Assembly: GCA_041649475.1 (NCBI GenBank)
Contig: JBAZNA010000001.1
Span: forward strand, 686,594-750,593
Direction: 5' to 3'
Source of the DNA: Patescibacteria group bacterium
Lineage (GTDB): Bacteria; Patescibacteriota; Patescibacteriia; Magasanikbacterales; GWA2-37-8
Length of the DNA: 64,000 nucleotides
Below, in pieces: positions 23,483 through 55,257 of the stretch. The position numbers and the translations under genes are program-made. The notes under the pieces were generated by a model. It did no database searches. It worked only from the letters and a program-made list of their open reading frames with translations, and was not told where the DNA came from. How positions within the stretch are numbered: position 1 is the stretch's first letter; each line of letters begins with the position of its first letter.

Positions 23483-24352
23483 TTACAAGATCATGCTTTC
23501 TCTGTCGTTTTCAGCCGATTTCAGGATATAAACATCGCTTTTTCCGTAGGCATCCTCGCCCACAAACTCCGCCTCTTTGTCTATAATCGCCTGCAGGGGT
23601 TTGCAAGCCGGACAGCCGTCGTCGCCGTTCGGGCATTTAAACCGGTTCAGTTGTCTGGCCAGTTTCATCTGTTTGGCGATTTCCAAAATTTTGTTTTGCG
23701 CTTCGTTTAGGTCGGGCAGGGTTTTTTCGGTTAAATTATCGCTGGAAAATAAGTACCAATAACTGGCTTTGGTCACTTTTCGCTTCTGGCAATTGTGCAC
23801 GAGCAAATGGTAAATCGGCAGTTGTAAAGAGTCGGTCTCTTCCTCGTTGCGCCCGGTTTTAAAATCAATAATGTGAACGCTGTCGGTGTCGGGCAAATAT
23901 TCCAGCCAGTCAATTTTCCCGCACAAAATAATATTTTCTTCTTCAGAAAGCCAATACGACGGCAGATCCTGCTGGATTTTTACGGAAAGCGTGGCGAGCG
24001 GGCCCGGACTCCTCATCACCCGGCGAAGCATTTCCTCTCCGCGCTGTTTATAAACATATTCAACCTCGTCGCTTTGGAAGCCGCCTTTTTTGCCGCGAAT
24101 TTTTTCCCAAGCCGTGTCCAGCTTTTCTATTAGCGACTTTGCGAAGCGCTGTTCAGTCGGCAAAACCGATAATGATTCCAAAACCTCATGCACGGCCTGG
24201 CCCAGCGCCAGCGCCGGAGCCATTATTTTTATTTTATGTTTTGTCACCGGATCTTTATAAACATTTTTCAAATAATACGCTTTCGGACAGCGCAAAAAAT
24301 CACTGATTGAAGTGTGTGAAACCCAAACTGCGGTGTATCTGTCCGGAGGCAT
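23483..24352 (-). CDS. PD-(D/E)XK nuclease with Fe-S cluster cysteines (Cas4-like/RecB-family)
   Basis: N-terminal Cys (CPKAYY) plus C-terminal CPNGDDGCPAC cluster. Core motif GKIDWLE...HIIDFKTGR (D...D/E-x-K). No CRISPR array in the window. Confidence 0.55.
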   Translation of the reverse strand: MPPDRYTAVWVSHTSISDFLRCPKAYYLKNVYKDPVTKHKIKIMAPALALGQAVHEVLESLSVLPTEQRFAKSLIEKLDTAWEKIRGKKGGFQSDEVEYVYKQRGEEMLRRVMRSPGPLATLSVKIQQDLPSYWLSEEENIILCGKIDWLEYLPDTDSVHIIDFKTGRNEEETDSLQLPIYHLLVHNCQKRKVTKASYWYLFSSDNLTEKTLPDLNEAQNKILEIAKQMKLARQLNRFKCPNGDDGCPACKPLQAIIDKEAEFVGEDAYGKSDVYILKSAENDRESMIL

Positions 24353-24358
24353 AGTTAT

Positions 24359-24733
24359 TTACGCGTAGGCAGTGCCTGCGTCTTTAATACTTAATGATTC
24401 AAAATAATAAATAAACTTCAGATTGTCTACATTAACACCGTATTTTATCACCAAACTCTTTGGCTCGCCGTTGATTACGGGATTAGCGAACAAATGCTGC
24501 TCGCGCAAGTCCGCGTTTTCCGGCGCATTGTCAATAATCGCAAAATCAAACAACTCATCAACAATTACGCCGGTAAATATTTCCTCAATCTCTTCCACAG
24601 AATCGCTGGTATCAAAATCAAACGGCTGATTTTTTTTAGTAAAAAGTTCTTTGAGCCGAGATTGCAAACCGTCTTTAATAGTTTTTAAAGCGCTTTCTAT
24701 CGCCGCTTCATGCGCTTTTTCGTTTTCGGACAT
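24359..24733 (-). CDS. Hypothetical acidic protein (124 aa)
   Basis: ORF with 6-nt spacing to the nuclease gene; no domain recognised. Confidence 0.35.
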   Translation of the reverse strand: MSENEKAHEAAIESALKTIKDGLQSRLKELFTKKNQPFDFDTSDSVEEIEEIFTGVIVDELFDFAIIDNAPENADLREQHLFANPVINGEPKSLVIKYGVNVDNLKFIYYFESLSIKDAGTAYA

Positions 24734-24739
24734 ATATAT

Positions 24740-25201
24740 TTATTTCTTCATCATTAGTTCTCTGAGCAAATTCGCGTCTTCTTTGCCCAGATATAATAAC
24801 CCATCTGGGTGCAACTCATTTTTATCACCAACTTGAGATAGTGAAGCTGTCCAAATACTTATCCGTGCAAGTTTAAACAAACCCATCAAAGGGCCACTGA
24901 TAGTTTTTATATCTTGGATTTTATCAAATGCTATAGATTTAGATTTTTTTATAAACATGCCCCAATTTATAGTTAAACTTCCCTGATCAAGAAAGAAGGA
25001 AGTAAATTGGAAATCGATAAAAAATCTGATAAAAACAGGGGCCCCAATAATAACCAGTAGAACCACAAAAAATCCGACCCAATACTTCGAAGCAAATAAT
25101 AAGATTGGTACAGTTACTAAAAATAACAACAGAGCTATCTTGACCGCAGCGTACAAAAGCAAAGAGTTTGACATTTTATACGTTTTTTTAAAGTCGTACA
25201 T
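24740..25201 (-). CDS. Membrane protein with bacterial PH (bPH_2/YdbS-like) domain
   Basis: Two N-terminal TM helices then a PH-like region (FIKKSKSIAFDKIQDIKTISGPLMGLF). Confidence 0.45.
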   Translation of the reverse strand: MYDFKKTYKMSNSLLLYAAVKIALLLFLVTVPILLFASKYWVGFFVVLLVIIGAPVFIRFFIDFQFTSFFLDQGSLTINWGMFIKKSKSIAFDKIQDIKTISGPLMGLFKLARISIWTASLSQVGDKNELHPDGLLYLGKEDANLLRELMMKK

Positions 25202-25213
25202 AATATAAATTAG

Positions 25214-25660
25214 TTATCTAAATTTCTTTAATGCGTTTGGTAGGCCCCAAATAACCAAAGCAATGCCGCCGAAGACAACTGATAGCCCCGGGAAGATGCT
25301 AGAAGCGTAGAGTTTCCAGCCCTGCCATTCCATGGAGATCAGCCAATCGCCTTTGATGCCGGAATACACCAAACCGACGCCGGCATACAAAAAGCCTGCT
25401 GCCAGCAGGCAGAAAAGGACGATGACGATGAGTTTAAAAGTGTTGTCGGTGGATGATTGGGGGAGGGTGGGCATATAGGATGGGTTTAAAATTAAGGATA
25501 AAAATAAAATATACGGCAAGAATATCTTACCATAATACACTAATGTTGAGCAATAAAAAAATTTTGCTCGAGGTGGTGGAGTAAGTACGAACCTGTATTG
25601 ACCAAGGTAAATATTCAACTTTTTTTTAAACGCCGCAAATAGTTTTAGCGAGGTGGTCAA
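25214..25660 (-). CDS. Membrane protein (148 aa)
   Basis: Multiple TM helices; no domain recognised. Confidence 0.35.
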   Translation of the reverse strand: MTTSLKLFAAFKKKLNIYLGQYRFVLTPPPRAKFFYCSTLVYYGKIFLPYILFLSLILNPSYMPTLPQSSTDNTFKLIVIVLFCLLAAGFLYAGVGLVYSGIKGDWLISMEWQGWKLYASSIFPGLSVVFGGIALVIWGLPNALKKFR

Positions 25661-26144
25661 TTATCAATAACCAATTAAGTTTGATTAGTAACAATAAAAT
25701 TCCAAATAATATTATGAATCCTATTATAAAAAACCAATTAAATCTATAATTTTGCTTATTTTCTCGATCGTTTTTTTTCACCTGACTTTTATAAAAAATA
25801 AATAGTAACATCAAAAATAAGAGGTAACCGCCATACTTTTTTAAATTATTCATCTGCCCAAAGGCGCTTATAACAACATAGCCAATTAAGCTAAGCAAGA
25901 CAATTGTAAACGGTAACTTTTCCTCTAGTTTTTCGAAGATACCATTCCAGTAGCGTGTACCCCATGGATCGCCTGTCGGTCCGCCCATATCTGGTTTCCC
26001 CTCTGAAGATGTCCCTGCTTGTGCTAAAATACCACCGGAGCTTTCTTCTTGTGGAACTATACCCTTAAAACCACTTTCGCTAATATCAATGCCAGTACCA
26101 CGTTTTTCATCCTCATTGATTCTGTTTGCCGTTCCGTTATTCAT
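25626..26144 (-). CDS. Membrane protein with Gly/Ser-rich N-terminal region (172 aa)
   Basis: G/S/P-rich N-terminus followed by 3 TM. Overlaps ORF 26137..26859 by 8 nt. Confidence 0.35.
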   Translation of the reverse strand: MNNGTANRINEDEKRGTGIDISESGFKGIVPQEESSGGILAQAGTSSEGKPDMGGPTGDPWGTRYWNGIFEKLEEKLPFTIVLLSLIGYVVISAFGQMNNLKKYGGYLLFLMLLFIFYKSQVKKNDRENKQNYRFNWFFIIGFIILFGILLLLIKLNWLLIIDHLAKTICGV

Positions 26145-26859
26145 ATAAATACTTCAAAAAGCCACCATGTATGTGTTCGATCGAATCTATATTGTCTTTG
26201 CATAAGCTTTCCAAATCTTGTAAATTGGTGGTCAACTCTTTATTTTGAAAAAAATCTATTTCGCAGTACGTGCCGCATTCTTTTTTATACTTATCTGCAT
26301 ACACCTGTTTTTTACTAAAAAATCTATTTATCGCTTCTTCGGTTGTTACCGGTCCCATTAGTATATTAAATTTTCCACCATCATATTCGCAGTCGTTAAA
26401 AGAAAAACCGAAATCAATCAGTTTAGCACCTGTGTTTTTTTCGAATGATTCATAATTTTTAAACATTTTGTTTTTAAATGCCGTTTTTAGATTATCCAAG
26501 TTATCTGCGCTATTAAAATTCAATATTGAACTTTTTGTGCCGACACGAATTAAAGTATTGATCGGATATTTATCAAAGGTTTTTATAATTTTAAATAATT
26601 TTTCTGTTTTGTTTTTAAACTCGCCAAAGTCCAATGAGCCATCAATTTGTAAACCGAAATTTTCAATACTAAAAAAAATAAATTCAGTTAAATCTTCATT
26701 TGCGACGTCTATCCTAGCGTCCATTATTTTTATTTTAGTGAAATCCTTATTTTTAGCTATAATAGCATCTGTCAATTGCCCTTTTAAATCCAAGAAAGAG
26801 AACTTCCTAAATTTTAAACGAATCTCTAGGGTATGTTTAATTATTTTAGTATCTGCCAT
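26137..26859 (-). CDS. Hypothetical cytoplasmic protein (240 aa) adjacent to R-M system
   Basis: AT-rich, N/K/F-rich composition; no domain recognised. Contiguous with the R-M genes. Confidence 0.4.
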   Translation of the reverse strand: MADTKIIKHTLEIRLKFRKFSFLDLKGQLTDAIIAKNKDFTKIKIMDARIDVANEDLTEFIFFSIENFGLQIDGSLDFGEFKNKTEKLFKIIKTFDKYPINTLIRVGTKSSILNFNSADNLDNLKTAFKNKMFKNYESFEKNTGAKLIDFGFSFNDCEYDGGKFNILMGPVTTEEAINRFFSKKQVYADKYKKECGTYCEIDFFQNKELTTNLQDLESLCKDNIDSIEHIHGGFLKYLYE

Positions 26860-26884
26860 ATAAATTAGATTAACAAATTATTTA

Positions 26885-27691
26885 TCACAATATAATAGTT
26901 ACTTTTTCATAAAGTTTTGGTAAACAATTTTGTCTCATTCTAAATTTAGTACCATGATTGTGGCCACTTCTTGCATCAAAATCCACCAAAATGTCCCCGT
27001 CTTCCAACGCTTTTAAAAAGCCTTCAAAGCTGAATTTTTGCAACATCATCACTTTAGAATAGTGATAATATTCTTTTTTGCGTTCTATTTTAACATCCGC
27101 TTGTACATAAAAGCAGTTTAGTAATTTTGTTCCGGCTTTATGTTCAAGATCATCAAAACCCCAGTATGGTTGCGGATCTAATTCACCCAAACCAACACGC
27201 TTTTTAACTGATTGCAGCCATACCTTGTGTCTTGGGTCAACACTTTTTGCTTCAAAAGAAATCAATATCTTTTTTTCTCGTCGGTCAATGACTACCATAA
27301 AACCACGGTCGCTTCGTGATTTGCCATGAATAGTTTGTCTAAAACTCATTTCGTTTTTAGGATATAATTTGTCGGCCTCATCATGAGCCCAGCCGTATTT
27401 TGGTAATAATACCTGTGGCACAAAACGAACTGCGCGTGGTGATGGTTCAGTGTGAAAAAGCGTTGTAAGCGATGTTGAATTTAATCGCTGCGCTTTTAAT
27501 TCCCATTCGGCCGCATTCGGAATTGGTAAATTATTTTCTTTAATGCCTAGCAGGTCTTCTAGCGTATTACCAATTCCGCCATGGTTACCTTTGCGGGCAT
27601 TTGGTATCCAACCCATCCCAGCTATTCGTTTAAATTCCTCAATCAAAATTGGTTTAGTAAAAAGATTTAATGTTTGTTTTGCACGTGGCAT
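26885..27691 (-). CDS. Putative Type II restriction endonuclease (PD-(D/E)XK; MvaI/BcnI-like by context)
   Basis: 268 aa immediately downstream of an m4C/m6A beta-class MTase with a 2-nt gap. Candidate PD-(D/E)XK core VVIDRREKKILISFEAKS. The family assignment is inferred, not verified. Confidence 0.5.
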   Translation of the reverse strand: MPRAKQTLNLFTKPILIEEFKRIAGMGWIPNARKGNHGGIGNTLEDLLGIKENNLPIPNAAEWELKAQRLNSTSLTTLFHTEPSPRAVRFVPQVLLPKYGWAHDEADKLYPKNEMSFRQTIHGKSRSDRGFMVVIDRREKKILISFEAKSVDPRHKVWLQSVKKRVGLGELDPQPYWGFDDLEHKAGTKLLNCFYVQADVKIERKKEYYHYSKVMMLQKFSFEGFLKALEDGDILVDFDARSGHNHGTKFRMRQNCLPKLYEKVTIIL

Positions 27692-27693
27692 AT

Positions 27694-28467
27694 TTAGAAG
27701 TTTAATTTTATTTGGGATTTATGTTTTTTTATACGTTCTTTTGCCATAGCACAATATTGTGGTGATATATCAATTCCGATGTAATTTCTGTTAAAGTTTA
27801 TAGCGGATATTGCGGTTGTGCCCGAACCCATAAAAGGGTCCAAAATAACTTTTGCACTGGTAGATGTGACAATTCTGTCAATCAAATCAACTGGAAAAGC
27901 GGCGGGGTGTTCATTTTTCATCTCTTGGGTAAATTCCCATACATCGCCGTACCCATTCGCTTTGGGCACTAACTTAAATTTTGGTTTAGCAATTAAATAA
28001 ATCACTTCATATGTTGGCACAAAATAACCAGCATTAAAATTAAAACCACCTTTCCGTCTCCAAATGATTATTTGCCGAACTGGAAAACCGGAAATAATAT
28101 CTTGTCTGTCCTGTAATTTTCCGGCTTGTACTCGCCATTTGTGATTATAAAAAATTGCACCGTCTTCCGGGATGATCCTCATCATCTCATTTAGGCAATC
28201 TCGCTGCCACTTAACATAATCTTCATGTGGCATGCAATCATTGTGATGACTATATCCTTTTTGTAGGGCCGCATTTGCCCATTTGCCACCTCGCCCGTCT
28301 TTCATGCCATTACCAGTTGAATTTTTTAAATTATACGGGGGCGATGTTACAACTAAATCAACACTTCCGTCAGGAATTTGCTTTAGTATCTGAACAGTGT
28401 CGCCACAAATAATTTTATTAACAAAACTATCGAGTTGCTTCATAAACCCTATATTATAAACTAGCAA
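27694..28467 (-). CDS. DNA methyltransferase, beta-class (N4-cytosine or N6-adenine), SPPY type
   Basis: Motif IV TSPPY precedes the C-terminal motif I DPFMGSGTT. This is the permuted beta-class order typical of m4C MTases such as M.MvaI/M.BcnI. Confidence 0.8.
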   Translation of the reverse strand: MLVYNIGFMKQLDSFVNKIICGDTVQILKQIPDGSVDLVVTSPPYNLKNSTGNGMKDGRGGKWANAALQKGYSHHNDCMPHEDYVKWQRDCLNEMMRIIPEDGAIFYNHKWRVQAGKLQDRQDIISGFPVRQIIIWRRKGGFNFNAGYFVPTYEVIYLIAKPKFKLVPKANGYGDVWEFTQEMKNEHPAAFPVDLIDRIVTSTSAKVILDPFMGSGTTAISAINFNRNYIGIDISPQYCAMAKERIKKHKSQIKLNF

Positions 28468-28508
28468 GTATATTTTACCCTTTTTCTTTTGAGTTTACAA
28501 ACACAAAA

Positions 28509-28531
28509 CTCACCCCTTTGCAAGGGGTGAG
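28509..28531 (-). terminator. Rho-independent terminator of HNH gene (hairpin ctcaccccttTGCAaggggtgag)
   Basis: Perfect 10-bp stem with 4-nt loop, followed on the minus strand by TTTTGTGTTTG. Confidence 0.55.
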
Positions 28532-28555
28532 TAGTAATTTGAAAAAACGTTCCAT

Positions 28556-29035
28556 TTAGGCCAACCGGCCGTGTTTTTCTAAAAAATACACAGAACTGCC
28601 TTCTTTTTCATGACAGTATTTACAGAGCACCTCACCATTTTCCACATCCCACAACTCAAAACAATTTATAGCTTCAGGGACTGAAGTAATGCGATTACTT
28701 CTTACAATCTGACACAATGTTTTTTTGTGATGCACCTCAAGAGCATACTTGCACCCGCATCTCTGACATCTATAACCTGCTCTAAATAAAACTTGCACTC
28801 TCCATCTATAATATTCAAAAGATCTTTGCAGTTCGCTTCTAAATAACTTATACTGTCCAAAATCAAAACCGGTATAAGAAAAAATGTTATATACCTTACA
28901 ACTTGGGCTCTGCTTTTGGTCTTTGTGATCAGTACGAGAATGCTTGATTATTACATACAATAACCAACAAAGCATAGCCAGACCGATTAAATCACCGAGC
29001 GCGGATGTGTTCTCCATAGACCCGTACCCTGACAT
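28556..29035 (-). CDS. HNH endonuclease with N-terminal membrane anchor
   Basis: HNH-like Cys/His motif CQRCG...LEVHH...CKYCH; hydrophobic N-terminal segment. Confidence 0.6.
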   Translation of the reverse strand: MSGYGSMENTSALGDLIGLAMLCWLLYVIIKHSRTDHKDQKQSPSCKVYNIFSYTGFDFGQYKLFRSELQRSFEYYRWRVQVLFRAGYRCQRCGCKYALEVHHKKTLCQIVRSNRITSVPEAINCFELWDVENGEVLCKYCHEKEGSSVYFLEKHGRLA

Positions 29036-29070
29036 AAATCGGCCAAATTGTCAATGTTCAGTCACCTACC

Positions 29071-29658
29071 CTACCTCACCTCCACCCCAACCTCTTTCCC
29101 CTCCGAAATATAGCCCACCAATCGCGCCACCTCGTCTATTGATTTCTGATTGGCAGCAGTCATCTGTCCCGGAGCCGAAACTGCATCCGTCGCCTGTTTT
29201 ATCAGTTCATTCATGGCCTGATTGTAGCCGTTATCATTTTCAAAAATGCGTTTCAAAATCCCCTGGCTGTTTTGCAGAGTAATATCCCCCACCAACCGCG
29301 AATTAAAAATTTCCACGGAAGGAATGTAAACCGTGATTTTGTTTCCATTGATTTTTATATCTTCTTCCTTAAGCTTGGCCAGATCAACTCCGGTATTTAC
29401 TTCAACCACCCCATACGCGTTTATCACCTGCCCCCACAAAAGCCGTTGCCAAAAAGTGTCCTGCTGGGTGGAAATTTTTATGGACTCATTCAAAACATTT
29501 GTCTGCGTAACCAAAAATCCGCGGTCGCGCAGGGCGGTGAGGATTGACTGGCTTGAGACCTTTGTCTGGCCAACACTTCTTGTGGCCCACCAGCCGATAA
29601 ATAGGCCGGCTGCAAAAATTAAAAAGACGATAACGACAGCGTAAATGAATTTTTTCAT
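29071..29658 (-). CDS. Membrane-anchored DUF4230-like protein
   Basis: N-terminal TM plus a ~170 aa soluble domain. The resemblance to DUF4230 proteins is from memory only. Confidence 0.35.
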   Translation of the reverse strand: MKKFIYAVVIVFLIFAAGLFIGWWATRSVGQTKVSSQSILTALRDRGFLVTQTNVLNESIKISTQQDTFWQRLLWGQVINAYGVVEVNTGVDLAKLKEEDIKINGNKITVYIPSVEIFNSRLVGDITLQNSQGILKRIFENDNGYNQAMNELIKQATDAVSAPGQMTAANQKSIDEVARLVGYISEGKEVGVEVR

Positions 29659-29666
29659 AGCATGGT

Positions 29667-30131
29667 TTAGTTTAATCTCATTACACTATATGTCAAAAAA
29701 GTCGCAAACCCCACCCAGGCCAGATATGGCACCAAAAGCCAGGCCGCGAATTTGGAAATCGGCCAAATCATCACAATCAAAACCAACACGGAAATGCCCA
29801 ATAAACCGGCCTCCCAGACAGCCGGGCCAAGCAGATGCAGACCAAAGAACAACACGCTCCAGAACACGTTTAAAAGGGCATTAACGACGAGCGCCGCGCC
29901 GATACCTGTCTTTCTCCGCCCCCAGGCCTTACTCATGGCAATTAGGGCCGAAATGGCGGTCAGAATGAACAAAACCGTCCAAACCGCGCCAATAAAACCG
30001 CCGGATGGGGTAAATGTGGGCAAATTTATGGACCGATACCAGCCCATGTTGAAATACGTCACCAAACCGCCCGCTACCATCGTGGCAATCGTGGCCAGTG
30101 GAATGATTATGTAATTGGCTTTAAAACGCAT
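29667..30131 (-). CDS. tspO: TspO/MBR (tryptophan-rich sensory protein) family
   Basis: 154 aa, 5 TM. Conserved TspO motifs: WYRSINLPTFTPSGGFIGAVWTVLFIL, NALLNVFWSVLFFGLH, LVPYLAWVGFATFLTYSVMRLN. Confidence 0.8.
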   Translation of the reverse strand: MRFKANYIIIPLATIATMVAGGLVTYFNMGWYRSINLPTFTPSGGFIGAVWTVLFILTAISALIAMSKAWGRRKTGIGAALVVNALLNVFWSVLFFGLHLLGPAVWEAGLLGISVLVLIVMIWPISKFAAWLLVPYLAWVGFATFLTYSVMRLN

Positions 30132-30155
30132 AAAAAAATTAGAAAAAATATAAAC

Positions 30156-30617
30156 TTAATTTATATCTCCTCTGATATCAACCGAGTAAAAATATGCTTC
30201 AACCCCTTTTACCTCCGACTCCTTATTATTATTTTTAAACTGCTTAATAAAATCTTTAGTAGATTCTATCCCTTGTTTATCAATAAAGTACGTAACCTTG
30301 ATTGGCACCAGCATACTTGAAATCATGGTCTTTTCAGAAACCGTCACCCAAACCAAATTTTTATTATCCCTCAAATCTTCATCCAAAGGTATCTCCTGAT
30401 GATCGGCTAAATAGTCCTCGTGATCCTGATAAATAAACACGCTTTTGACTTTCTCCGAAACCTCCTCAATATTTTCAAAATTTTGCAGATCAGCCACGGG
30501 TTTGCCAAATCTTAAAGCTTCATGAATGGCCTGCGCGACCATCTCTTTTTCTAATTCAACCTGCGTGGTCTTGTCCTCCAGGTCTATTACCGGTATGCGG
30601 TTATCTAAATTTTCCAT
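30156..30617 (-). CDS. Hypothetical acidic protein (153 aa)
   Basis: ORF with no recognised domain. Confidence 0.35.
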   Translation of the reverse strand: MENLDNRIPVIDLEDKTTQVELEKEMVAQAIHEALRFGKPVADLQNFENIEEVSEKVKSVFIYQDHEDYLADHQEIPLDEDLRDNKNLVWVTVSEKTMISSMLVPIKVTYFIDKQGIESTKDFIKQFKNNNKESEVKGVEAYFYSVDIRGDIN

Positions 30618-30690
30618 AATCTTTTGACAGTTAAAATCTCTGCTCTAATTCTACCTTTTTTTGACTTTTTTGACAAGCCAACCCTCCTGC

Positions 30691-30719
30691 TTGACAAAAC
30701 CGAAAAATTATTTTAAAGT
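30691..30719 (+). promoter_or_regulatory. Sigma-70-like promoter TTGACA-17-TAAAGT upstream of the GC-rich cassette gene
   Basis: Canonical -35/-10 spacing. It is preceded by two further TTGAC half-sites and followed by RBS GAAGGAGAGG 3 nt before the ATG at 30743. Confidence 0.5.
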
Positions 30720-30742
30720 AATCAACCAACGAAGGAGAGGAC

Positions 30743-31051
30743 ATGACCAAAAACGGCACCGCAAACGGCGTGATCACGTTCGGCCAGTTGCAGGCGAAGT
30801 TCATGGAGGTCTTTCCGTCATACCTCAAGGGCCTGGAGGAATACCCCGCGGAGCTCCGCCATAGAATCGCCAAGCTCTGGCTGGACATAGAGGAGATGGC
30901 GTACGAGCGGCTGCGGCACTTTTCCGACGCCTTTCAGCTCCAGGACGTGGAGGTGCCGGTGGGCGTGACGGGTCGCTTCTGCGAGGAGATGGAACAGCTC
31001 CAGCAGGAGTTGAAGTCGGCTCACGACCGGCAGCACGGCGGGCACATCTAG
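30743..31051 (+). CDS. Hypothetical protein (102 aa) in GC-rich cassette
   Basis: GC-rich ORF with a consensus promoter and strong RBS, followed by a bidirectional terminator. No domain recognised. Confidence 0.5.
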   Translation: MTKNGTANGVITFGQLQAKFMEVFPSYLKGLEEYPAELRHRIAKLWLDIEEMAYERLRHFSDAFQLQDVEVPVGVTGRFCEEMEQLQQELKSAHDRQHGGHI

Positions 31052-31096
31052 CGCCGCTGCCCTACAGGTCAACAACGGTCATGTCCAGAATCAAAA

Positions 31097-31134
31097 AGCC
31101 GGTAGGCCTTCGCGCCACCGGCTCATTTTTTTTT
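31097..31134. terminator. Bidirectional rho-independent terminator (agccggt...accggct followed by T9)
   Basis: 7-bp GC-rich stem with a 13-nt loop. A-run upstream and T-run downstream. Confidence 0.6.
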
Positions 31135-31286
31135 AAAAATTATTTTTAGTCACCCTGCGGGAGGGAAAGACCGGCTCCTTTGGTAAAGACGGTCCGCCTG
31201 AGGCAGAAAAGGAGCGAGGTCTGTTCCACAAGGGCAAGATATATATACTGTATAAGTATGAGTTAAACCTGTCAAGAGGGCATTGA

Positions 31287-31358
31287 GCCGATGGTGGGGA
31301 TCAAACCCACGACCTATCGCTTACGAAGCGATTGCTCTATCAACTGAGCTACATCGGC
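31287..31358 (-). tRNA. tRNA-Thr (anticodon CGU), CCA not encoded
   Basis: Acceptor GCCGATG/CATCGGC, D-arm GCTC-AGTTGATA-GAGC, anticodon stem ATCGC/GCGAT with loop UUCGUAA, T-arm GTGGG-TTTGATC-CCCAC. Confidence 0.85.
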
Positions 31359-31366
31359 GCCTTTGT

Positions 31367-34000
31367 TTACCGGTTCGTCAATTTATTCATTTTTTCTTTG
31401 GCCTCATTTAACTTTTCCTTTTCTTTGGCTATAACTTCTTTTGGCGCGTTTTTTATAAAATCTTTATTCGCCAACTTATTTTCCAATCCGGAAATATATT
31501 TTTTCAAATCAGCCGTTTCTTTATTTATGCGCGCCGTTTCTTTTTCCACGTCAACCGCGCCGGATAAATCAATATACACCTCAATTCCGGATATGACAAA
31601 TCCGATGGCGTCTTTCGGCTTATTAAGTTTTTCTTTTATTTCCAAGTTTTCCAAACGGGCCAGATTTTTTATGACCTGCTCTTTTTCTTTTATAGTTTTA
31701 ACTTCGGTGCCGGCGCTGATATGCGCGGACAATTTTTTCCCCGGCTCAATTTTGTAATCCGCCCGCAGTGCCCTGATTCCGGTCACGATCGGCTGGATAA
31801 TCTTTTCAAATTTTATTACTTCTTTATCCGCCTTTGATTTAGTTTGTGCTATCGGCCACTTTTCCACCATCAGCAAATTATCCTGTCCGTAAACTTCTTT
31901 CCAAACCGTTTCCGTCACAAACGGCATATACGGATGCCAGAGTTTTAAGATTGTATTTAAAATATAATTTAAAACTTCTGATTTATTGCCTTCAATTTTG
32001 GCAATCTCCAAGTACCAATCAGCCAAGTCCCCCCAGGTGAAATCACGCAATCTCTCCCCTGCCAAAGAAAAATTAAAGTCCTCAATATTTTTGGTAGTTT
32101 CACCTACAATTAGATGTAATTTATTTAAAATCCATTTATCAGCCAGGGTTTTTGCGGTCGGCTCTTTTGCGTCGGCTTTTGGCGCCTCAATATTTAATAA
32201 AATAAATCTGGAAATATTCCAAAGTTTATTCGTAAAATTTCTAAAACCGGCAATTTTTTCTTCATATAGTTTTATATCGTTCCCCGGTGTGTTGCCAATA
32301 AGCAAAGACAGTCGGGTCGCGTCTGTGCCGTATTTGGCGATCATATCTAAAGGGTCAATCACATTACCCAATGATTTGCTCATCTTTCTCCCCTGCTCGT
32401 CGCGCACCAAACCGTGCAAATAGACCTTTTCAAACGGAACTTCGCCCAAAACATAGGTGGTCATCAAAATCATTCTCGCCACCCAGAAAAATAAAATATC
32501 ATAGCCGGTTTCCATCACTGAATTCGGATGATAATTTTTTAAGTCCTCGGTTTTTTCCGGCCAGCCCAGAGTGGAGAAAGTCCACAAACCCGAACTGAAC
32601 CAAGTGTCCAAGGTATCTTGATCCTGTTTCCAGCCCTCGCCTTTTGGCGCTTCCACGCCCACATAAACTTCTTCCGCCTTTGGCCCGGTCCGATACCAAA
32701 CCGGAATTCTGTGCCCATACCAAATCTGGCGGGAAATGCACCAGTCGCGCAAATTATCTATCCAGTGAAAGTATATTTTAACAAATCTGTCCGGAATGAT
32801 TTCAATCTTTTTGTCTTTCACCACTTTTTGCATCAGTTGTTTCAAACTCGCTTTCCGGCGCGCGATTTTTTTATTTACGTCAATAAACCATTGCTGTGAT
32901 GGGAGCGGCTCAATCGGCGTGCCGCAACGGTAACAAACCGACAAGTTATTTTGTGCATCTTCTTCTTTTTCCAAAATTCCGGCCGTGCGCGAATTTTCCA
33001 CCACTTTTTTTCGCGCCTCAACCACGCCTAAACCCGCGTACTGCGAACCGGCCTTGTCGGTGATTTTGCCGTCTTCATCAATAATTTTAATTATTTCCAA
33101 TTTATTTTTTATCGCCATGCCGTAGTCAACCAAACTGTGCGCCGGAGTCACACCCAATGCGCCCGTGCCGAAATCCATATCCACCTGCGCGTCGCCAATT
33201 ACTTTTATTTTCAAATCCGGCCCGCCGGCAAATTTTTTAATTTCAAAAACCTGGCCAATATATTTTTTATATCTCTTGTCTTTCGGATTGACAGCCACGG
33301 CCGTATCCCCTAATTTTGTCTCCGGCCGGGTGGTAGAAATCGCAAAAGGAAAATCTTTGCTGTATTTAAAGGTGTATAATTTCGCTTTCTGTTCTTTATA
33401 CTCCACCTCATCATCCGCCAAAGTGGTATGACAGCTCGGACACCAATTCACAATCCGGTAGCCGCGGTAAATCAAACCATCGTCATACATCATTTTAAAA
33501 ACCGTGCGCACGGCCAAGTTGCGCTTATCATCCAGTGTAAACGCCTCGCGGCTCCAATCCAAAGACGAGCCCATTTTTTTACACTGACTAACAATCGTGT
33601 CATGAGATTTTTGCGCAAATTTATTTACTTCATCCAAAAATTTTTCCCGGCCCAGTTCGGCCCGCGGATTTTTCATTCCCTGCCCGATGAGTAGTTTCTC
33701 AACTTTTGCCTGTGTAGCAATGGCCGCATGATCTGTACCCGGCACCCACAGGGTTTTGTCGCCTTTCATGCGGTGATAGCGCACCATCACATCTTCAATC
33801 GCGAGCATGGTCGCATGACCCAAATGCAAAGTTCCGGTGACGTTCGGCGGCGGTAAAACAATGGAAAACGGCTTCGCTTTTGGCCCGGCCACGCCTTTTT
33901 TGACGCAAACATCCGGATTAAAAAATCCGGACTGCTCCCATTTTTTATAAATCTCATCCTCGTAATTTTTTGGCTCGTAGGCCTTGGATAATTCGCGCAT
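31367..34000 (-). CDS. valS: Valine--tRNA ligase
   Basis: 877 aa with HIGH (PNVTGTLHLGH) and KMSKS (KMSKSLGN) motifs, a C-terminal coiled coil and an editing domain. Confidence 0.95.
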   Translation of the reverse strand: MRELSKAYEPKNYEDEIYKKWEQSGFFNPDVCVKKGVAGPKAKPFSIVLPPPNVTGTLHLGHATMLAIEDVMVRYHRMKGDKTLWVPGTDHAAIATQAKVEKLLIGQGMKNPRAELGREKFLDEVNKFAQKSHDTIVSQCKKMGSSLDWSREAFTLDDKRNLAVRTVFKMMYDDGLIYRGYRIVNWCPSCHTTLADDEVEYKEQKAKLYTFKYSKDFPFAISTTRPETKLGDTAVAVNPKDKRYKKYIGQVFEIKKFAGGPDLKIKVIGDAQVDMDFGTGALGVTPAHSLVDYGMAIKNKLEIIKIIDEDGKITDKAGSQYAGLGVVEARKKVVENSRTAGILEKEEDAQNNLSVCYRCGTPIEPLPSQQWFIDVNKKIARRKASLKQLMQKVVKDKKIEIIPDRFVKIYFHWIDNLRDWCISRQIWYGHRIPVWYRTGPKAEEVYVGVEAPKGEGWKQDQDTLDTWFSSGLWTFSTLGWPEKTEDLKNYHPNSVMETGYDILFFWVARMILMTTYVLGEVPFEKVYLHGLVRDEQGRKMSKSLGNVIDPLDMIAKYGTDATRLSLLIGNTPGNDIKLYEEKIAGFRNFTNKLWNISRFILLNIEAPKADAKEPTAKTLADKWILNKLHLIVGETTKNIEDFNFSLAGERLRDFTWGDLADWYLEIAKIEGNKSEVLNYILNTILKLWHPYMPFVTETVWKEVYGQDNLLMVEKWPIAQTKSKADKEVIKFEKIIQPIVTGIRALRADYKIEPGKKLSAHISAGTEVKTIKEKEQVIKNLARLENLEIKEKLNKPKDAIGFVISGIEVYIDLSGAVDVEKETARINKETADLKKYISGLENKLANKDFIKNAPKEVIAKEKEKLNEAKEKMNKLTNR

Positions 34001-34030
34001 AAAAACTATTTAAACCGGCGCTGGCGCGCC

Positions 34031-34104
34031 TGGAGCGGGATACGGGAATCGAACCCGCGTCTTAACCTTGGGAAGGTCACATACTACCATTGTAATAATC
34101 CCGC
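34031..34104 (-). tRNA. tRNA-Gly (anticodon CCC), CCA encoded
   Basis: Acceptor GCGGGAT/ATCCCGC, anticodon loop UUCCCAA, T-arm GCGGG-TTCGATT-CCCGT. 3' end TCCA. Confidence 0.8.
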
Positions 34105-34140: not shown

Positions 34141-35190
34141 TTATTGTTGTGTACTGGTGCTTGGTAAAAACGGATTATGAACATTGATATACAGATGGTA
34201 ATCTGTCTGCTTGGAGATCCTATCTAAATATGTGCCCAAATCCAAATACGGAAACAGAATATGACTGGCGCGAATCTCGTCTTTTGTCACTGACTTGCCG
34301 GTAGTGGCGTCTTTGGCAGTGGTGGTGCGCTTGTCAACCAGCTTGATTATATGATATCCAAATTGTGTTTCAACCAAAACCGGATCAACCTCGCCTTTTT
34401 TCAAAGAGAAAGCGGCAGTTTCAAATTGCGGTACCATATCGCCTTTGCCAAACCAGCCCAAGTCCCCGCCCTGTTCGGCCGTGGCATCACTACCGTATTG
34501 TTTCGCCATGGTCGCGAAATCAGCGCCGTTTAAAATCTGACTCAAGACCTGCTGGGCTTGATTTCTGATATCGGTTTGCAAAGTCGGATCAGCGGCAATC
34601 GCGTCTGATAATTTATTCTGCAAAATAAACGGCTTCATTACTTTTTCCTGATACTGGGCCATTGTCCAACCGTATCTTTTCATCAATTGCGCGTTGGCAT
34701 CGGCTTCATCTTTGAATTGTTGCAACATCTGGGCTTTCAGATCACTGATGTCTTTGTCGGTCACTGAAAGGTTATAATTTTTAGCCGCTTTGTTTACCAA
34801 AATCATATTGGACAGGCGCAATAAAACCTGATCGGACATTTGTTCCGCGGTTAACTCGGCGCCCGGGCCGTTATTGGCCTTGTCATATTGTTGCATGACA
34901 TGGATGGCTTTCAAATCACTCAAGTAATCGGAATACAAAACTTTCTGGTCGCCGACTTTCAAAGCCGGCAAACGCAAAATGCTGGCAACGGTGGCGGTAA
35001 ACGGATCAGTGGCCACTTGAGCATATGCCCGGTAAGTGCCAAAAGCGATGGCGCCCAAAATCACCAAACCGACCAGCCCGATTAAACCGAATAAAAACAT
35101 TCTAAAATTTGACTTAGATTTTACTTCTCCTCCCTCTGTGTTTGTTGTTGTCTCCATAGATAAATTATTTATTATTATTTTAATGGACAA
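34141..35190 (-). CDS. Membrane-anchored PpiC/parvulin-type peptidyl-prolyl isomerase (PrsA/SurA-like)
   Basis: N-terminal TM, SurA-N-like helical region, and a parvulin domain (GGDLGWFGKGDMVPQFETAAFSLKKGE...GYHIIKL). Confidence 0.7.
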   Translation of the reverse strand: MSIKIIINNLSMETTTNTEGGEVKSKSNFRMFLFGLIGLVGLVILGAIAFGTYRAYAQVATDPFTATVASILRLPALKVGDQKVLYSDYLSDLKAIHVMQQYDKANNGPGAELTAEQMSDQVLLRLSNMILVNKAAKNYNLSVTDKDISDLKAQMLQQFKDEADANAQLMKRYGWTMAQYQEKVMKPFILQNKLSDAIAADPTLQTDIRNQAQQVLSQILNGADFATMAKQYGSDATAEQGGDLGWFGKGDMVPQFETAAFSLKKGEVDPVLVETQFGYHIIKLVDKRTTTAKDATTGKSVTKDEIRASHILFPYLDLGTYLDRISKQTDYHLYINVHNPFLPSTSTQQ

Positions 35191-38325: not shown

Positions 38326-38600
38326 AATCAGACCGCGAAAGGGAACTGCAGGTGAAACAAACCAGCAACCTGTAGACCCGCACTTTCTCCCCAGAGAAAG
38401 GTTTAGCGGCCTCGTAGCGCAACACGGATGCGGCCTTGGGAACGACCGATAACGAGTTTAAACCTCGTCGGTCAGAAGAACGAGATCGTCCGCCGCAGCC
38501 CAAAAGAAGACGGATGAGCCAAGGAGGAGGAATGCGCCCAAGGCCCGAGCAACACAGCATGCAGGTGCTGGTAACTGCATGCTTCTTTTAATTCTTGTTT
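38326..38600 (+). ncRNA. Candidate ~270-nt GC-rich non-coding transcript (promoter-to-terminator unit), identity unknown
   Basis: Bounded by the promoter at 38295-38323 and the hairpin gcatgcag...ctgcatgc followed by a T-rich run at 38557-38600. No plus-strand ORF above ~26 aa. GC-rich and purine-rich. It does not match the tmRNA, RNase P or SRP features I can recall. Confidence 0.25.
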
Positions 38601-38672
38601 TTTTCCATCGCCTGTGTTACCTTGTCTGTAAGCTTGGTAATCAACTTGCCAAAAACGAAAGGGGGTATCAAA

Positions 38673-39248
38673 ATGCCACGTGCCATCATCAGTGTGTACG
38701 ACAAGACCCGGCTCCTGGCCTTCGTACAGGGTCTCACCAGTCTCAACTGGGAGATCATCTCCACCGGCGGCACCGCCAAGCATCTGCGGGAAGCGGGCTT
38801 CCCAATTCTGGATGTGTCGCAGGTCACCGGATTCCCGGAGTGCCTGGAGGGACGGCTCAAGACCCTGCACCCCAAGATCCTCGGCGGCATCCTGGCCAAG
38901 GGCACGCCGGAGCACAAGGCGACCCTCAAGAAGCTGGAAATCGAGATGGTGGACATGGTCGTGGTCAACCTCTACCCGTTTGAGGAGACCGTGGCCAAGC
39001 CGGACACGACCTGGGACCAGGCCATCGAGCAGATTGACATCGGCGGCCCCACCATGATCCGCGCCGCGGCCAAGAACCACAACCGCGTGACCGTGATCGT
39101 GGACCCGAACGACTACATGCTGGTGGTCAACGAGCTCGAGTTGCACGGCGAAGTCCGTCCTCATCTCCGCCAGTCCCTGGCGGCCAAGGTCTTCCGCAAG
39201 ACCGCGGAGTACGACAAGGCCATCGCGGACTACTTCAACAGGTCCTGA
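38673..39248 (+). CDS. PurH N-terminal domain only: IMP cyclohydrolase (MGS-like) domain protein, GC-rich, possibly a truncated purH
   Basis: MPRAIISVYDKTRLLAFVQGL...STGGTAKHLREAGFPILDVSQVTGFPECLEGRLKTLHPKILGGIL...VVVNLYPF matches the PurH IMPCH domain. It ends where the AICAR transformylase domain would begin. GC is far above the flanks. RBS AAAGGGGG upstream. Confidence 0.7.
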   Translation: MPRAIISVYDKTRLLAFVQGLTSLNWEIISTGGTAKHLREAGFPILDVSQVTGFPECLEGRLKTLHPKILGGILAKGTPEHKATLKKLEIEMVDMVVVNLYPFEETVAKPDTTWDQAIEQIDIGGPTMIRAAAKNHNRVTVIVDPNDYMLVVNELELHGEVRPHLRQSLAAKVFRKTAEYDKAIADYFNRS

Positions 39249-39349
39249 CAGACCCCAGCTGATCCGTTCTTTCCACTTGAGGAGACAACAGCGCAGCCGA
39301 TTCCCCATCGGCTCGCCTCAATCTAATGAAAATCAAGATTTGGTTTTTA

Positions 39350-53673: not shown

Positions 53674-53746
53674 GCGGGCTGTAGCGAAGTTGGTATCGCG
53701 CATCGTTCGGGACGATGAGGCCGCGGGTTCAAGTCCCGCCAGCCCG
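53674..53746 (+). tRNA. tRNA-Pro (anticodon CGG), CCA not encoded
   Basis: Acceptor CGGGCTG/CAGCCCG, D-arm GCGA-AGTTGGTA-TCGC, anticodon stem CATCG/CGATG with loop UUCGGGA, T-arm GCGGG-TTCAAGT-CCCGC. Confidence 0.85.
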
Positions 53747-53765
53747 ACGGGAAGGAGGCAAAGCA

Positions 53766-54029
53766 ATGCGTATTCCTTGTCCACGACCGCCCAGGTCGAT
53801 TCAAGATGAGGTTAAGGTTCATGAAGCAATCAGGGACGCCAAGGCCAATTCCAGGCTGATCTTCGTCGTTGAAGTCAATCCGAAAACGCACGAAGTGTCG
53901 GCTAACGCGTACTGGCCGGCTGCCCTGCCCGGATGGGAAAAGGAATATTCCCTTCTCGGGGAGCTCAAGAAGATGGCCGTTTCGGTCTGGCGCAAGGTCA
54001 GCAGGAAGCAAAACAATGCGCAAGCATAG
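53766..54029 (+). CDS. Hypothetical protein (87 aa) in GC-rich cassette
   Basis: Strong RBS GGAAGGAGG 8 nt upstream of the ATG, directly abutting the tRNA-Pro 3' end. GC-rich; no domain recognised. Confidence 0.4.
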   Translation: MRIPCPRPPRSIQDEVKVHEAIRDAKANSRLIFVVEVNPKTHEVSANAYWPAALPGWEKEYSLLGELKKMAVSVWRKVSRKQNNAQA

Positions 54030-54116
54030 CGGAGGGGTGTTCGCGAACTCACCAAAAAAGTTCGCTTTTTTGTTTAAAAAATGAGCAGTTTATAGAGATG
54101 CTCCGCTCTTTTCTGG

Positions 54117-54716
54117 TTACTTCTTCGTGGGCTTCTGGCCCACACGCATGTCCTTCACATCCGCCTCCACTCCGACCTCCAGGGTATTCGGCTTGACCGA
54201 GAAGATCTCCTCCTGTTTGATCTTCACCCCAGGCACAGTGACGGCGACAGCCGGTTCTTCCAGCATCGCCTCCTTGTTTGGGTCTTCAACGATTCTGACA
54301 AAGCGCTTGAGGCCCATCTTCTTGAGCGCCTTGATCACCGCCTTCTTGTCGCGCAGGTGCACCGAAGGCGGATTGAGACGCCATCCGAAACTGCCGGTTG
54401 GCACCTGGATGGTCTTGGTCTTGCCGCCCTCGGTCAGCGTCTCGCGGTTCGCGTCGGCGAAGATGAAGAGACCCCGTACCAGGCCGGCAATGGTCCGGTT
54501 GTGAGACGAGGCGAAGGCCATCGCCTTCTTCTGCAAGACCGCTACCCCGTCATTTAAGACATTCTCGATCGAGTTGATCTCCCTCTGCTCCGCGGCGATG
54601 CGAGTCAGTATGTTAGCCGCCTCAACCAGGTTTTCCGGAATATATACTTCATAGTCCGGCTTAGCAGGCATCTTCACCTGATGAGGTGCTTTATCCACGA
54701 TCTTTTTCTTGGCCAT
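54117..54716 (-). CDS. gam: Phage Mu Gam-like host-nuclease inhibitor / DNA-end binding protein
   Basis: ETLTEGGKTKTIQVPTGSFGWRLNPPSVHLRDKKAVIKALKKMGLKRFVRIVEDPNKEAMLEEP aligns closely, by memory, with Mu Gam (DELTNGGKVKTANLVTGDVSWRVRPPSVSIRG...LGLQRFIRTKQEINKEAILLEP). GC-rich; RBS GGAGGG. Confidence 0.7.
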   Translation of the reverse strand: MAKKKIVDKAPHQVKMPAKPDYEVYIPENLVEAANILTRIAAEQREINSIENVLNDGVAVLQKKAMAFASSHNRTIAGLVRGLFIFADANRETLTEGGKTKTIQVPTGSFGWRLNPPSVHLRDKKAVIKALKKMGLKRFVRIVEDPNKEAMLEEPAVAVTVPGVKIKQEEIFSVKPNTLEVGVEADVKDMRVGQKPTKK

Positions 54717-54828: not shown

Positions 54829-55257
54829 CTAAGTTAAACCGAGAGCAGGTTTAACTTGTTTCATATCTTCCTCTAAAACTTCAACTCTGCCTTCAATAAT
54901 TCGCATATCGTGCGTAGCAATAGTGAGCTCCTGGTCTTTCTTTTCAGTTATTTGAACTAATTTATCAAGAGTAATTGAAATTTTGTTCAAATCTGTTTTC
55001 GTCGCCATATCAGCCTCAATCCGATCCAAACGCTCATCGTGTTCTAAAAATTTTATTGCTAAAAAATCAAATCTTTTATCAACCTGGTCAAATCTTTTAT
55101 CAACCTGGTCAAATCTTTTATCGTGAGCTTCTAGTTTTTTATCAATTTGGTCAAACCTTTTGTCAATTTGGTCAAACTTCTTATCGTGGGCACTGAATTT
55201 TTGTGTGATGTTTTCCATAGTTTTTATATTATACTGTGATAATAAAATTGGTGTCAA
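54829..55257 (-). CDS. Coiled-coil protein with tandem heptad DKRFDQ(I/V) repeats
   Basis: Six consecutive 7-aa repeats DKRFDQI/DKKLEAH/DKRFDQV..., encoded by 21-bp DNA tandem repeats. Confidence 0.5.
   Translation of the reverse strand: MTPILLSQYNIKTMENITQKFSAHDKKFDQIDKRFDQIDKKLEAHDKRFDQVDKRFDQVDKRFDFLAIKFLEHDERLDRIEADMATKTDLNKISITLDKLVQITEKKDQELTIATHDMRIIEGRVEVLEEDMKQVKPALGLT
55066..55192. repeat. 21-bp tandem repeats (about 6 copies, atcaacctggtcaaatctttt consensus)
   Basis: Directly visible: tcaacctggtcaaatcttttatcaacctggtcaaatctttta ... tcaatttggtcaaacctttt ... Confidence 0.7.

Follow-up and report, generated by a model that had tools for sequence, protein, structure and literature searches.

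A two-gene cassette recurrently linked to restriction–modification genes in a low-GC island of a Patescibacteria genome: a candidate defence module

A 64,000-nucleotide (nt) stretch of contig JBAZNA010000001.1 from a Patescibacteria group bacterium, referred to here as the window, contains a patch of unusually low guanine-plus-cytosine (GC) content at positions 24353-29035. Within it lie two adjacent genes, g6 and g5, which encode a soluble protein and a small membrane protein. The remaining contents of this island are ordinary: a Type II restriction–modification (R-M) pair (g8/g7), three orphan genes (g2-g4) and a separately transcribed HNH gene (g9). The compositional anomaly of the patch is marked, g6 is firmly linked to g5 across loci, and the pair is repeatedly found embedded in R-M operons. 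From this genomic linkage we infer a defence function and assign the roles of sensor and effector. The patch may be horizontally acquired DNA in a variable slot between a tRNA-Thr gene and the core nuclease gene g1, with g6-g5 serving as an R-M-coupled second line of defence built from a soluble sensor and a membrane effector. This joint reading is offered tentatively, as having slightly less than an even chance of being correct.

The g6 and g5 genes form a conserved two-gene unit. A word-seeded search of 5.8e9 proteins recovered 8 relatives of g6, and a profile search among 1.84e9 recovered 280 cluster representatives. Within the close clade (33-94% identity), the gene right after the g6 homologue is a g5 homologue in every distinct locus (15/15), and it encodes a protein of 143-175 amino acids (aa). 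The two genes mostly overlap by 4-26 nt and are otherwise separated by a gap of a few nt; the overlap is 65 nt in one locus (L092), where the open reading frame (ORF) call is long. For three distant g6 relatives (20-26% identity; L099, L101 and L112), the gene that follows likewise encodes a small protein, disordered at its N terminus and with transmembrane helices. No family in Pfam, NCBIfam, PADLOC or PHROG accounts for g6, and none in Pfam, PADLOC or PHROG accounts for g5, for which DUF4181 gave a match below threshold. A limited literature search found no description of the pair.

The neighbours of the pair provide the more specific ground for a defence role. The gene upstream of the pair is visible in ten loci, and in nine of these the pair lies next to an R-M system; the R-M partners are of at least four independent kinds. 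Six loci (L007, L091, L092, L096, L097 and L111) show the g6 and g5 homologues (g6h and g5h) inside a Type III operon in the order Mod-g6h-g5h-Res, where Mod matches the PADLOC model MTase_III (E 1e-114) and Res combines ResIII with an endonuclease domain. The three junctions measure -4, -4 and +1 nt in two of these six loci, and L096 has one additional small ORF before Res. In L100 an unrelated Type III mod-res unit, whose Mod and Res are ~27-30% identical to the others, lies 0.9 kb downstream of the pair, and in L093 the pair follows a Type II gamma-class methyltransferase at 0.4 kb. In the window it begins 25 nt after the MvaI-like endonuclease gene g7, adjacent to the R-M genes and not internal to them. 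The only full context that has no R-M gene is L002, an island with serine recombinase, SNase and helix-turn-helix genes. The sequences of L006 and L110 break off immediately before g6h and do not show which gene precedes it. The same six R-M queries found nothing in 1.26 Mb of control Patescibacteria loci, although these controls are core-gene neighbourhoods and the contrast is therefore overstated. Recurrence in several kinds of R-M operon is a far more specific ground for suspecting a defence role than position in this island by itself.

Rates of divergence differ within the Type III clade. Mod (55-74% identity) and Res (62-78%) are better conserved than g6h (36-52%) and g5h (33-56%), so the four-gene order is old and the insert is faster-evolving. 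The g8-g7 homologues in the contigs L102-L109 lack the g6-g5 pair, which points to a separate cassette that docks in various R-M operons. These features bear on the idea that g6-g5 is selfish, either an addiction or toxin–antitoxin-like pair, with g5 as the membrane toxin and g6 as its neutraliser, or other non-immune cargo hitch-hiking in mobile R-M operons. The upstream soluble gene does overlap a downstream small membrane protein gene, as in many toxin–antitoxin pairs, and the pair is fast-evolving, sporadic in the distribution of g6 and found in recombinase-bearing islands. However, its position between mod and res is stable down to 55% Mod identity, and both g6 and g5 exceed the size of typical toxin–antitoxin partners. 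In addition, searches with tblastn (queries g6 and P0100) found no relatives on plasmids, and pattern scans found no member of the g6 family in viral contigs. An explanation of this kind appears improbable.

Under the R-M-coupled reading, the g6-g5 cassette would move between R-M operons, and g8-g7 would be transcribed from a promoter-like site of their own. The g6 protein would act in the cytoplasm as a sensor or adaptor that reads out the state of either the R-M enzyme or the incoming DNA, and g5 would be a membrane effector or anchor that halts the infected cell once restriction has been bypassed. The executing part would then be a membrane protein, in place of the anticodon nuclease of PrrC, an R-M-embedded protein compared with the pair below. 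In a bolder form, g6-g5 would be an undescribed defence module functionally wired to R-M enzymes: a soluble protein of the TIGR04255 superfamily would keep watch on the Mod/Res (or Type II) enzyme, or on the substrate of that enzyme, and upon a block to restriction would cause a small membrane protein to arrest the cell. The pair would then be an 'RM guardian' of Type III and Type II systems that acts at the membrane. This stronger version is rather doubtful.

The exact placement of the pair between mod and res, with coupled translation, can also be read as the mark of a non-immune R-M accessory. Examples would be a membrane tether that puts Mod/Res at the site of DNA entry, or a device for delaying or titrating the expression of Res while the system becomes established in a new host; the long cytoplasmic tail predicted for g5 and the solubility of g6 suit such a role. 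Against it, the pair is found with R-M types that differ in mechanism (Type III, monomeric Type II and a Type II gamma methyltransferase) and also occurs where there is no R-M system, and we regard an accessory role as quite improbable.

The g5 protein starts with a low-complexity tail of ~65 aa that varies between homologues, and this is followed by a conserved amphipathic stretch and two to three transmembrane helices. Behind the tail, its homologues share the motif LPFT...IGYVVIxAFGxM...YxxFL...YK. The loop joining the last two helices is rich in K/R, which by the positive-inside rule would place the tail in the cytoplasm. For g6, an AlphaFold2 (AF2) model built on a 9-sequence alignment has a mean confidence (pLDDT) of 76.5 and a predicted template-modelling score (pTM) of 0.76, with elements in the order beta-alpha-beta4-alpha, then beta-alpha-alpha-beta2-alpha-beta-alpha. 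There is no relative of g6 in the PDB by sequence. A Foldseek search of the PDB gave weak matches to AdoMetDC, RepD, the TATA-binding protein (TBP) and arginine kinase, with template-modelling scores of at most 0.37, and a search of BFVD gave scores of at most 0.49. The model suggested two beta-alpha-beta units, and an internal duplication of the TBP kind was considered and rejected: hhalign of the N-terminal half against the C-terminal half returned 0.2% probability, and the Foldseek scores are low.

Across 44-95 family members, the near-invariant positions of g6 are E12, R14, D24, G27, G69, R105, G107, D149, G169 and D202. This mixed acidic and basic set would be less expected of a DNA-binding face than of a catalytic, ligand or metal site, and the isoelectric point (pI) of g6 is near neutral, at 6.4. 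The single family matched by more than one member of the wider group is TIGR04255, found with 9 of 95 distant superfamily members (best E 4e-8). For g6 there is no match to it at E<=1, and the close clade of g6 does not match it either. Membership of g6 in TIGR04255 was rejected because g6 is unmatched, as are ten long family members chosen for their length; a remote superfamily link remains. The literature search turned up nothing specific on TIGR04255 either.

These protein features bear on whether g6-g5 is instead an autonomous two-protein defence that shares operons with R-M systems in the way TgvAB does. Its action would be Kiwa-like, with g5 sensing phage-induced envelope changes and g6 acting on incoming nucleic acid. 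The pair lacks an R-M neighbour in the recombinase/SNase island of L002 and in the distant L099, L101 and L112; it occurs beside at least four unrelated R-M types; two DNA binders, TBP and RepD, are among the best, though weak, structural matches of g6; and both TgvAB (PMC11411939) and Kiwa (PMC11785009) offer precedents. However, the near-neutral pI of g6 and the mixed charges of its conserved E12, R14, D24, R105, D149 and D202 provide no basic DNA-binding face, and no match to KwaA/KwaB or to any other PADLOC model was found. Translational coupling between mod and res across a long divergence also suggests more than co-location. An autonomous system is therefore considered unlikely.

Several points weigh against an R-M-coupled defence by g6-g5. 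The six Mod-g6h-g5h-Res loci belong to one Type III clade and represent one old association, not six, and most contexts of the pair are short metagenomic contigs. L002 and all three distant relatives lack an R-M neighbour. No known defence domain was found in g6 or g5; PADLOC v2 returned no match for g6, g5 or 44 family members, and none of its models fits the family consistently. The modelled fold of g6, with the low Foldseek scores given above, provides no functional lead. With no relative of g6 found in plasmid or viral collections, mobility of the cassette is read from context alone. Finally, the clade of endonucleases to which g7 belongs lacks the canonical first catalytic Asp, so that activity of the R-M enzyme in this genome is assumed.

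The R-M pair itself had been recognised in the initial annotation of the window, and the assignment holds: by sequence, g8/g7 is a Type II system of the MvaI/BcnI family. The g7 protein matches PF15515 over its full length (231 bits against a cut-off of 25) and resembles the solved enzymes R.MvaI (PDB 2oa9; E 7e-21) and R.BcnI (E 2e-6). The g8 methyltransferase, which more likely starts at the ATG at 28443, has SPPY near its N terminus and DPFMGSGTT near its C terminus, the beta-class order. SPPY in motif IV is a signature of N4-cytosine methyltransferases and fits systems of the MvaI/BcnI type. Both proteins match one fused methyltransferase–endonuclease model in PADLOC (MTase_II PDLC03305; E 2e-118 for g8 and 1e-82 for g7). 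The g8-g7 order is kept in four contigs of the viral collection (L102, L107, L108 and L109), at 65-79% identity for g8 and 56-65% for g7. A blastn search of the island against phages returned a methylase match only: ~476 nt within g8 (27820-28295) are 70.5% identical to a 'DNA modification methylase' gene of Methanosarcina virus MetMV, the sole match in the phage collection.

The active site of g7 departs from that of its characterised relatives. Where MvaI/BcnI enzymes have (P/G)-D...E-x-K, g7 has P-N...E-x-K (IPNAAEWELK compared with APDFHDIEIK), with Asn in place of the first catalytic Asp and E-x-K present. All seven aligned clade members carry the same substitution, which by alignment makes it a clade feature and not a private mutation. 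The clade (L102-L109) may therefore have either a variant active site or inactive endonucleases retained beside methyltransferases.

Comparison with the known MvaI/BcnI systems, in which R.MvaI cuts CC^WGG and R.BcnI cuts CC^SGG and each has an N4-cytosine methyltransferase, shows agreement in the PF15515 match and in the SPPY methyltransferase gene directly upstream. It shows differences in the distant relationship of g7 to the solved enzymes and in the catalytic Asn. The CCWGG/CCSGG specificity expected in the initial annotation is unsupported in this genome, where neither word is avoided (observed-to-expected ratio (O/E) 0.89 for CCWGG and 0.99 for CCSGG in the window), and support is weak in contigs with the closest g8/g7 relatives, some of which show at most mild depletion of CCWGG.

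Other words are avoided in the window. AGNCT occurs at 7 sites where ~121 are expected (O/E 0.06); these are 25393, 27019, 38739, 43752, 43914, 53853 and 55012, two of the seven falling inside the island. CTCAG/CTGAG has 8 sites where 54 are expected (0.15), and TCGA has an O/E of 0.24. This avoidance is genome-specific, with most relatives at 0.8-1.1 and exceptions in L054 (0.13) and L050 (0.24). AGNCT was considered as the target of g7/g8 and rejected, as the word is not depleted (O/E 0.7-1.3) in eight contigs that carry a g7 homologue 56-65% identical. The only ORF in the window with a [DNS]PP[YFW] methyltransferase motif is g8, and the avoidance of AGNCT, CTCAG and TCGA is probably due to R-M systems elsewhere in the genome.

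The island had been picked out as visibly AT-rich, and its GC content of 0.359 compares with 0.437 for the rest of the window. It is the lowest 4.7-kb stretch of the 64 kb, ~3 standard deviations under the mean, with the next lowest at 0.378. All nine minus-strand ORFs, g1-g9, were confirmed at their coordinates (Table 1). GC at third codon positions (GC3) forms a mosaic: 0.28-0.36 in g5-g9, 0.34 in g3, 0.42 in g2 and 0.50 in g4, the last resembling the flanking backbone-like genes g1 (0.55) and g10 (0.54). Two usual attributes of a genomic island are present: its composition deviates, and relatives lack it at the syntenic site. Two others are absent: no integrase or recombinase occurs among the ORFs (ORF list and Pfam), and no convincing direct repeats flank the island borders. 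A scan of the window found no CRISPR-like or other tandem array near the patch.

Table 1. Coordinates of the island genes and flanking features in the window
Feature	Description	Coordinates	Strand	Evidence or remark
g1	PD-(D/E)XK / 4-Cys Cas4-like nuclease	23483..24352	-	PDDEXK_1 E 3e-22; left edge of variable slot
g2	Acidic 124-aa orphan	24359..24733	-	pI 4.4
g3	Membrane protein, two N-terminal hydrophobic helices and bPH domain, YdbS-like topology	24740..25201	-	bPH_2 E 1.9e-8
g4	Orphan membrane protein, three transmembrane helices	25214..25660	-	GC3 0.50, backbone-like; TTG start uncertain
g5	172-aa membrane cassette partner	25626..26144	-	Hydropathy; homologue directly downstream of each g6 homologue
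g6	Soluble 240-aa cassette partner	26137..26859	-	8-nt overlap with g5; lowest GC of window (0.29)
g7	MvaI/BcnI-family Type II restriction endonuclease	26885..27691	-	PF15515 MvaI_BcnI E 2.4e-68; PADLOC REase_II 2e-83
g8	Beta-class SPPY DNA methyltransferase, predicted N4-cytosine	27694..28467	-	PF01555 N6_N4_Mtase E 2.6e-40, 139 bits
Promoter-like site		28500-28472	-	Follows the hairpin
Terminator-like hairpin	11-bp stem	28532-28508	-	Boundary between g9 and the g8-to-g2 gene string
g9	HNH nuclease, one N-terminal transmembrane helix (residues 12-30)	28556..29035	-	HNH Pfam E 1.3e-5; PHROG HNH 1e-8
tRNA-Thr(cgt)		31285..31358	-	Right anchor of variable slot

The variable slot extends over 24353-31284. 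Local synteny is retained in three relatives (L010, L019 and L025), where the order is a homologue of the window gene at 34141-35157, tRNA-Gly(ccc), tRNA-Thr(cgt), zero or one variable gene, g1, a short variable stretch and FtsE-FtsX; in L010 the tRNA-Thr(cgt) is on the opposite side of g1. The slot gene differs in each of them, being a major facilitator superfamily (MFS) transporter, an acidic ORF or a MazG-like ORF, and g1 lies 0.5-1.5 kb from tRNA-Gly/tRNA-Thr, as compared with 6.9 kb of lineage-specific DNA from tRNA-Thr to g1 in the window. The window also has a valyl-tRNA synthetase (ValRS) gene between tRNA-Gly and tRNA-Thr, giving a variable region of 24353-34104. None of g2-g10 was found within 10 kb of g1 in the loci of 80 relatives. 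A check for conserved housekeeping genes and for conservation of the block, proposed with the original description, thus shows that the unknown genes are not conserved housekeeping genes and that the slot differs between relatives.

On the other side of g1, the relatives have homologues of the window genes 15084-15761 and 13753-15087 directly 3' of FtsX, and the window has 4.6 kb of additional genes before them. Between an acidic 153-aa gene and tRNA-Thr, a plus-strand ORF of 102 aa (30743-31051) has a GC content of 0.61 against 0.43 for the genome; no Rfam family matches the surrounding 630-nt gap, which folds somewhat better than shuffled sequences (z -3.1). The genome looks compositionally patchy far outside this island. 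GC-rich patches (0.55-0.59) with ORFs of odd composition occur at 38472-39308, 53715-54716 and 10770-11138, and further low-GC stretches at 43.6-45.7 kb and 54.8-59.4 kb. In one of the latter, a 129-aa ORF (54829-55218; GC 0.34) contains a 21-nt (7-aa) tandem repeat of ~5.7 copies at 55067-55202, which encodes a coiled segment of the HDKRFDQ(I/V)D type.

The nuclease gene g1 at the left edge of the slot was originally described as a Cas4-like member of a defence island. The PD-(D/E)XK core and four-Cys cluster are present (RCP...KCPx4CPxC, retained in L010, L019 and L025), in the one-plus-three Cys layout of Cas4/AddB-type nucleases. Its scores fall under the Cas4 cut-offs (35.8 against 65 bits for TIGR00372 and 17.2 against 22.7 bits for PF01930). 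No CRISPR array lies in the window, in line with the original remark that none is nearby; there are no cas genes beside g1, and its neighbours in relatives are FtsEX and tRNA genes. Membership of a defence island does not stand. At least 465 relatives of g1 occur among GTDB species genomes; the best 80 are 60-71% identical, and most of their loci carry a Magasanikbacteria label or that of other Patescibacteria. The gene belongs to the Patescibacteria core, being found in at least 80 species; it has backbone GC, is present in relatives that lack g2-g10 and is not island cargo. It is unusually well conserved across Patescibacteria classes, has no cas genes nearby, and has the look of a so far unstudied core nuclease of DNA repair or processing in the group. 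The suggestion that g1 is more conserved than FtsE fails in the closest relatives (67-71% for g1 and 73-81% for FtsE); lower FtsE identities in distant loci may come from paralogous ABC ATPases.

Neighbouring genes along the g8-g1 run either overlap or lie 2-25 nt apart, a tight packing consistent with a single transcript, and the five genes g2-g6 had been proposed to be one new defence or abortive-infection module, flanked by its own Cas4-like nuclease. Of these five, only g6 and g5 are co-conserved elsewhere. The other three genes were found beside g6-g5 in none of the 14 other loci, the codon GC of g4 is backbone-like, and g1 is a core gene found in relatives without g2-g6. Contradicted by these comparative data, a five-gene module is scarcely credible.

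The descriptions of g2 as an acidic protein and of g3 as a bPH-domain membrane protein proved correct. The three genes g2-g4 are lineage-specific orphans with no evidence for cassette membership. Four libraries (Pfam, NCBIfam, PADLOC and PHROG) contain no family for g2 or g4. Neither g2, in viral contigs, nor g3 and g4, in viral scans, has a relative there or in 112 fetched loci, and a search of 5.8e9 proteins with g3 found only g3 itself. An AF2 single-sequence model of g2 is weak (pLDDT 62).

At the other end of the island, g9 had been called a membrane-anchored HNH nuclease behind a terminator, and the transmembrane helix, HNH domain and hairpin were all found. It is its own transcription unit, separated from g8 by the terminator-like hairpin and the promoter-like site, and it is not linked to the R-M pair elsewhere, as no g9 homologue lies beside g7/g8 homologues in other loci. 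Among the loci of the g6-g5 pair, two (L097 2134-3681 and L002 7243-9185) have an SNase-domain gene beside a gene for a ~310-aa protein, which in L097 has a weak SIR2 match (PADLOC E 2e-7). These may be another defence pair in the same islands.

R-M-embedded accessory genes are a proven source of immune mechanisms, as PrrC and TgvAB illustrate. The Mod-g6-g5-Res operon is compact and conserved, and it comes from lineages, at least partly Patescibacteria, in which phage defence is almost unstudied. Knowing what g6-g5 does would, in addition, open a first way into the function of the TIGR04255 superfamily. This family, described as 'sporadically distributed', resembles g6 in length and sporadic distribution and through the 9/95 distant g6 relatives that match it. 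It differs in that g6 and its close clade are unmatched, and the family has no assigned function, so the link explains nothing yet.

Three characterised systems offer the closest comparisons. Kiwa is a membrane-plus-soluble defence pair of KwaA and the DUF4868 protein KwaB (PMC11785009). Like Kiwa, g6-g5 has two genes, for a small multi-transmembrane protein and a soluble partner. Unlike Kiwa, it has no match to the KwaA/KwaB models, the soluble gene comes first, and the 240-aa g6 lacks DUF4868. TgvAB is embedded in a Type I R-M cluster of the Vibrio cholerae island VPI-2 (PMC11411939). It too comprises two genes that interrupt an R-M operon and that occur away from operons of this kind as well, but TgvAB is a GmrSD-family Type IV nuclease, and g6/g5 have no nuclease or GmrSD similarity.

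PrrC is an 'RM guardian' embedded in the Type Ic EcoprrI locus, and inhibition of the restriction enzyme sets it off (PMC12707154). It is a single ABC-ATPase/anticodon-nuclease protein in a Type I system, whereas g6/g5 is a soluble-plus-membrane pair in Type III or Type II loci and has no PrrC-type ABC ATPase or anticodon-nuclease domain in Pfam, NCBIfam or PADLOC. A limited literature search found no guardian embedded in Type III systems. The likeness lies in the arrangement, with accessory genes placed between the modification and restriction genes and co-inherited with them in six Mod-g6h-g5h-Res loci. If the R-M-coupled reading is true, the ultra-small Patescibacteria, with few other defences, would have in g6-g5 a counterpart to PrrC that acts at the membrane.

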